Below, piece by piece: positions 16,629 through 17,042 of a stretch of 64,000 nt of DNA. Each line of letters starts with the position of its first letter. Position 1 is the first letter of the stretch. The stretch covers positions 62,001 to 126,000 of the forward strand of contig JALJEE010000927.1 in the NCBI GenBank assembly GCA_023231475.1, read 5' to 3'. The translations under genes and the position numbers were made by a program. Below the pieces are notes generated by a model. The model was not told the DNA's origin. It did not search any database and saw nothing but the letters and a program-made list of their open reading frames with translations. Source of the stretch: Seison nebaliae. Its lineage: Eukaryota.

Positions 16629-17042
16629 ATGGCTCGTACAAAACAGACTGCACGTAAATCCACTGGAGGAAAGGCTCCTCGTAAACAATTGGCAACAAAG
16701 GCAGCAAGAAAGAGTGCACCGTCAACTGGTGGTGGTGTTAAGAAACCACATCGTTATCGACCTGGAACTGTTGCATTGCGAGAAATTCGTCGTTACCAAA
16801 AATCGACTGAATTATTGATCCGAAAATTACCATTTCAAAGATTAGTACGTGAGATTGCACAAGATTTCAAGACTGATCTTCGATTTCAATCGGCAGCAGT
16901 CGGTGCATTACAAGAAGCAGCAGAAGCATATTTGGTCGGTTTATTCGAAGACACAAATCTTTGCGCTATTCATGCTAAACGTGTGACTATTATGCCGAAA
17001 GATATTCAATTGGCTCGACGAATTCGTGGAGAACGAGCATAA
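16629..17042 (+). CDS. H3.3: Histone H3.3-like variant with a one-glycine insertion in the tail (137 aa)
   Basis: Near-identical to H3 with S31, A87 and G90. DNA reads ACT GGT GGT GGT GTT AAG (TGGGVK). Solitary gene; no histone stem-loop seen after the stop. Confidence 0.95.

Follow-up and report, generated by a model that had tools for sequence, protein, structure and literature searches.

An extra glycine beside G33-G34 in an H3.3-type histone gene of Seison nebaliae

We found that Seison nebaliae carries an H3.3 histone variant with one extra glycine, and that the insertion is real. The gene lies in the window, by which we mean the whole 64,000-nucleotide stretch of contig JALJEE010000927.1 that was analysed (Table 1). 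It is an intact, intronless open reading frame of the H3.3 type that encodes 137 amino acids including Met, with the stop codon inside the range given. Around the insertion, the codons AGT GCA CCG TCA ACT GGT GGT GGT GTT AAG AAA encode S28, A29, P30, S31, T32, three glycines, V, K36, and K37. A first-pass annotation of the same DNA had proposed three GGT codons and 137 residues in an otherwise intact gene, and this was borne out. The ten-residue segment that it quoted is also present, but the segment spans 16716-16745, and the range given for it, 16719-16746, begins one codon late. On balance, we favour the reading that the extra glycine in the G33-G34 hinge of this intact H3.3 was likely born by slippage and is likely tolerated with little functional effect.

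Table 1. Features of the H3.3-type gene and its 3' flank (window positions)
Feature	Position	Strand	Evidence
H3.3-type histone ORF	16629..17042	+	PF00125, PDB 4hga_B, NCBI protein match
S31 and T32 codons, now at -6/-5 from K36 (normally -5/-4)	16722..16727	+	Sequence
GGT GGT GGT: G33, G34, and the extra Gly (inserted one indistinguishable)	16728..16736	+	Sequence; 4/4 runs
K36-equivalent codon; G-G-V before and K-P-H-R-Y-R after, both unaltered	16740..16742	+	Sequence, PDB comparison
AAVG at canonical residues 87-90, where the paralog in the same runs has SAVM	16893..16904	+	Sequence, contig comparison
3' intergenic stretch ending at the convergent RPL4 stop	17043..17501	+	Rfam scan, hexamer search

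The assignment to H3.3 was supported by several features. The histone fold was found by Pfam (PF00125; E 3.4e-48, 163 bits) and is preceded by an H3 tail. Among PDB entries, the best match was human H3.3, and the match to PDB H3 proteins was full-length. Apart from the extra glycine, the protein differs from human H3.3 (PDB 4hga_B) only by I89V and S96A, and the I89V change is likewise found in Pristionchus his-71 and Fasciola. Ser at residue 31, listed as an H3.3 criterion in Table 3 of PMC3380720, is present (TCA at 16722). A87 and G90 are also present, in the form AAVG where human H3.3 has AAIG, and this motif is distinct from the SAVM motif of another H3 gene in the same runs. The H3.3-like identity first proposed for the gene therefore holds, on the basis of S31, A87/G90, and near-identity to human H3.3. 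The NCBI records include an identical 137-aa protein, encoded on a single contig of 132,873 bp.

The gene lies outside a histone cluster, with a homeobox gene and RPL4 as its flanking genes. The adjacent RPL4 matches a protein of Seison nebaliae at 99%, and the next matches stand at ~70%. Searching all six frames of the window (64 kb) for short H2A, H2B, and H4 motifs revealed no second core histone gene, the one match being KESY at 9993. Rfam gave no match to the histone stem-loop family between 16300 and 17600 at E<=10, in a species that offers no positive control. The AT-rich 3' stretch contains candidate poly(A) hexamers, namely ATTAAA at 17145, 17293, and 17349 and AATAAA at 17445. Upstream, a C2H2 zinc-finger ORF (14087-14872, +) faces a homeodomain gene consisting of a single ORF (14876-15373, -) tail to tail, and only 3 bases separate their stops. 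The end of the zinc-finger ORF may reflect read-through into an intron. The homeobox gene and the H3.3 gene diverge across ~1.25 kb.

We examined the glycine repeat in sequencing runs. Five runs contain the stretch and four were compared, representing two samples and two studies, with X2, X4, and X5 sharing one sample and X1 coming from the other. The first-pass annotation had proposed a read-level check; carried out on the contigs of these four runs, it gave three GGT codons in all and no two-GGT form. The contigs of all four bridged the repeat with no other letters and no gaps, which makes an assembly slip very unlikely. There was no indel row at a min_share of 1, nor any alternative contig at >=90% identity in the four runs. 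The locus was as deep as unrelated contigs from its own run (14.1 vs 14.3-14.4, and 28.2 vs 27.9). As this evidence consists of contigs, from which rare variants are dropped, rather than raw reads, and as the best runs may be the assembly's own source, rare alleles may still exist. Run X1 was also considered as RNA, but this was rejected, as one joint-free contig spans the whole stretch in a DNA-like manner.

The position of the insertion determines which spacings change. As had been annotated, GGVK36 is retained, and the K27-K36 and S31-K36 spacings are each one residue longer, while the K27-S31 spacing is kept. The register around K36 is unchanged from -3 to +6 and that around K27 from +1 to +7. 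The residues at -4, -5, and -6 from K36 are all altered (T to G, S to T, and P to S, respectively).

The H3 tail is expected to be unstructured. According to published structural and peptide studies, G33-G34 lie buried in a narrow tunnel of SETD2, whose contacts run from A29 to R42 (PMC4973290), with the S31-K37 main chain sandwiched in its channel (PMC4973290; PMC7495481). Its strongest sequence readout is described at G33, G34, V35, and P38, that is, at -3, -2, -1, and +2, and a weaker readout reaches P30 (-6), with non-native residues preferred at -5 and -4 (PMC7495481). For PRC2, A29/P30 and V35 are described as anchors, whereas G33/G34 are likely unrecognised and possibly form a flexible hinge (PMC7725500).

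On this background, the preferred reading of a tolerated insertion can be set out as follows. One GGT unit would have been added by slippage; three identical glycine codons have a probability of 0.18 under the codon use of the window, so that support for this origin is weak. SETD2 and NSD enzymes would still thread G-G-V-K36 through the tunnel, and K27 enzymes would meet a normal site. Between the PRC2 anchors A29/P30 and V35 there would be one residue more slack, and since G33/G34 are likely an unrecognised hinge (PMC7725500), the extra glycine may add slack rather than strain. The change in PRC2-K36 crosstalk suggested in the first-pass annotation is doubtful for the same reason. The sole predicted change concerns proteins that grip S31 and K36 together, such as ZMYND11 and the phospho-S31 patch of SETD2, which would find T32 at -5 and Gly at -4. 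In part, T32 may substitute for S31, and an effect on S31-K36 co-readers is plausible.

Several observations support tolerance. The locus is at full depth in all four runs and appears to be under purifying selection relative to the SAVM paralog, the SETD2 core motif from -3 to +2 is fully kept, and spacing longer by one residue recurs in fungi (Catenaria, Entrophospora, Clathrus, and Linderina), ichthyosporeans, Salpingoeca, Penaeus, Saccoglossus, and 66 of 74 pattern-picked metagenome loci. In addition, flies with H3.3S31A are reported to develop normally (PMC12918891, preprint). The fly result cuts both ways, however, as the mutant males are infertile and seisonids are described as reproducing sexually (PMC2784805). 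Also against tolerance, the SETD2 readout extends to -6 and its channel contacts S31-K37, while -4, -5, and -6 all differ in Seison. Only a minority of the natural insertions have glycine at -4 (8 of the 52 distinct segments). In the two clean animal precedents, Penaeus and Saccoglossus, S still stands at -5 and T at -4, a hint that the register of S31 tends to be conserved.

To place the insertion in context, we compared it with other longer K27-K36 spacers. Each homolog search listed 120 cluster representatives, of 5872 and 7027 matches, from which no frequency of longer spacers can be derived. Among the 120 listed of 5872 matches to a query of residues 16-55, a search biased toward insertions, the K27-K36 spacing was standard in 107, longer by one in 10, longer by two in one, and shorter in one; the one match left unparsed (P0102) was also longer by one. 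Those named with one or two extra residues, across fungi, ichthyosporeans, choanoflagellates, and other protists, were Catenaria, Entrophospora, Clathrus, Grifola, Thoreauomyces, Linderina, Rozella, Sanchytrium, Creolimax, Sphaeroforma, Salpingoeca, and Pedospumella. Animals named with one extra residue were Penaeus (P0351, under four accessions, and P0355) and Saccoglossus (P0331, P0354). The matches listed (120 of 5872 and 120 of 7027) included none identified by name as H3.3 from a rotifer or an acanthocephalan. A metagenome scan with an insertion pattern in which GGVKKPH was fixed, and which has no denominator, gave 74 loci, with spacing longer by one in 66, standard in 6, and longer still in 2.

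Altogether, spacing longer by one was seen in 115 records comprising 52 distinct segments, numbers in which the query is counted and which the design of the searches enriched. The near-invariant H3 tail length assumed in the first-pass annotation is thus too strong a statement, named animals being among these records. Glycine occupied -3 in 49 of the 52 segments, the DNA pattern having fixed GG; S or T occupied -4 in 32 and -5 in 27. The segment STGGGVKKP was found only in the query among the proteins retrieved. The ten-residue segment, a search for which in related taxa had been suggested, occurs exactly in one of the metagenome loci, of unassigned lineage (L055:401-438), within a divergent 140-aa H3. 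In six other loci (L034, L043, L044, L045, L056, and L063), divergent H3-like proteins of 159-161 aa carry GNGGGVKK together with a long tail insertion rich in Gly and Ala. The record P0064 from a sea lion (STGRGVRK), which shows several further changes, may be a retrocopy. The penaeid 137-aa H3.3-like proteins (P0351/P0355), with APASTGG and AGIG and identical under four accessions, are a candidate conserved shrimp H3 variant.

The functional consequence could nevertheless be larger than we favour. One alternative, which we regard as unlikely, is that, with the window gene as the sole H3.3 in Seison, all replication-independent nucleosomes carry S31 out of register with K36. The stimulation of SETD2 by S31ph and the S31-dependent binding of ZMYND11 would then be lost or moved to T32, a rewiring possibly allowed by loss or change of the SETD2 and ZMYND11 readers in a gene-poor lineage. 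In its favour, S31 lies at -6 and T32 at -5, and standard H3.3 was not found in two runs (X1 and X5). According to a commentary (PMC7456420), S31ph is read by SETD2 K1600/K1673, while unmodified S31 contributes to ZMYND11 binding and S31ph impedes it. Moreover, published reports put the share of metazoan BUSCO genes missing from Seison nebaliae at ~36-40% (PMC8351084, PMC12256650). However, the evidence on S31 comes from mammalian cells, and S31 appears largely dispensable in the fly soma (PMC12918891). Thr at -5 could also preserve the geometry, as S or T stands there in about half of the natural segments counted above.

Whether the gene stands alone was addressed by searching its coding region against the contigs of X1 and X5 at 80% likeness. 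Each run yielded three records, namely the H3.3 gene itself, one full-depth paralog, and one low-depth piece. Two further runs, X6 and X7 (organism B), gave no matching contig and are uninformative. The full-depth paralog is of the SAVM type (depth 15.1 in X1 and 28 in X5) and was recovered as two pieces. It is 3 nt shorter than the window gene (100 letters vs 103 in window 16706-16808), and would be of standard length if the missing 3 nt lie in the glycine run. Its 40 listed differences (13 further ones besides) touch 32 codons, of which 30 are synonymous and two give A87S and G90M. This indicates strong constraint on the amino acids and argues against a pseudogene. By the criteria given in PMC3380720, the SAVM paralog classes as replication-coupled and the window gene as H3.3. 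The SAVM H3 lies on contigs of ordinary depth (X1 record 2 and X5 record 5), and in X5 it is flanked on either side within a contig of 10.7 kb. The replication-coupled H3 may therefore be single-copy, which would be unusual for an animal, although contig depth is not copy number and the X1 contig ends within the gene. Neither low-depth H3 contig reaches the glycine run (X1 record 3, 16842-17029, depth 2.5; X5 record 6, 16629-16705, depth 3). X1 record 3 lacks the listed SAVM-diagnostic changes and looks H3.3-type; it may derive from a rarer lineage or another organism.

The paralog survey proposed in the first-pass annotation thus gave one other full-depth H3, of the SAVM type, whereas a standard-length H3.3 was not found in the X1 or X5 contigs at 80% likeness, a search of partial sensitivity. 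We simulated a synonymously saturated second H3.3 (n=5000) and obtained a mean identity of 78.6%, with an exact run of >=15 nt in 72% and of >=18 nt in 40% of copies; every copy had a 50-nt window at >=80% identity. Because detectability in these simulations was partial, the window gene is likely, though not provably, the only H3.3 of Seison. The converse seems to us rather improbable, namely that a standard H3.3 went undetected and the window gene is a minor or specialised H3.3-like paralog, which the 137-aa Penaeus and Saccoglossus genes may also be. A saturated second H3.3 could escape detection, more so if split by introns, and the SAVM paralog itself came out only in two pieces. Yet this equally diverged gene was recovered in both X1 and X5, all simulated copies offered a detectable 50-nt window, and apart from the glycine the protein is just two substitutions from human H3.3. 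Least credible are the readings as a slip in the assembly, as a rare allele, or as a pseudogene that is silent, which are already largely refuted: although the repeat is a perfect trinucleotide one and was seen in contigs whose runs may include the assembly source, it was identical across both samples and studies, no alternative contig appeared at >=90% identity, the genome's RPL4 is at best ~70% identical to that of other species, the frame is unbroken, and divergence from the SAVM paralog is almost entirely synonymous.

Oncohistone mutations cluster in the K27-K36 stretch of H3.3, which is generally taken to be constant in length. That an animal is viable with an extra hinge glycine in its probable sole H3.3 would mean either that this spacing is not strictly required or that crosstalk between S31 and K36 can be given up or relocated. 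If the crosstalk has indeed been rewired, Seison would represent a natural animal experiment on K27-S31-K36 spacing. Its tail may serve as a natural spacer-test sequence for SETD2, PRC2, and ZMYND11, to which the insertion seen in Penaeus and Saccoglossus would be the complementary control. This significance is tempered by the frequent one-residue-longer spacers across eukaryotes, and the functional reading is drawn from sequence. No earlier report of a three-glycine H3.3 variant was found in the literature searched (subscription journals being outside its scope). The word 'histone' has no occurrence in the main text of PMC8351084 and PMC12256650, and the accessible part of PMC2642717 describes bdelloid canonical H3 as conserved, without mention of H3.3 or Seison.

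Finally, we compared the tolerated variant that we favour with known systems. The G34R/V/W/L oncohistones alter the same stretch of the tail, and the first-pass annotation had drawn this analogy, which proved weak. In G34 mutants, a side chain enters the tunnel of SETD2 and blocks it (PMC4973290), whereas -3 and -2 both stay Gly in Seison, so that the tunnel-block mechanism is inapplicable. Catenaria P0055, Entrophospora P0337, Sphaeroforma P0366, Salpingoeca P0340, Rozella P0334, Pedospumella P0109, and L055 likewise have one or more extra residues between P30 and GG. These fungal and protist H3 proteins are non-animal (the lineage of L055 being unassigned), and most have S or T at -4, unlike Seison; L055 also has a strongly diverged histone fold. 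With other animal H3.3 proteins (human 4hga_B, Pristionchus his-71 P0008, Fasciola P0295), the Seison gene has S31, A87, and G90 in common; its AAVG is also found in P0008 and P0295, and its A96 in P0008 and Montipora P0293. It differs from them by one more Gly between T32 and V35, giving 137 aa. The closest parallels in length are Penaeus P0351/P0355 and Saccoglossus kowalevskii P0331/P0354, which are also 137-aa H3.3A-like proteins with K27-K36 longer by one and GGVK36 intact. In these, however, the residue is added before S31 (APASTGG), so that the S31-K36 register is kept and K27-S31 changed; Seison shows the reverse, with K27-S31 kept and S31-K36 shifted. Judged from these alignments, the distinctive point of Seison H3.3 is the S31-K36 shift and not the added length.
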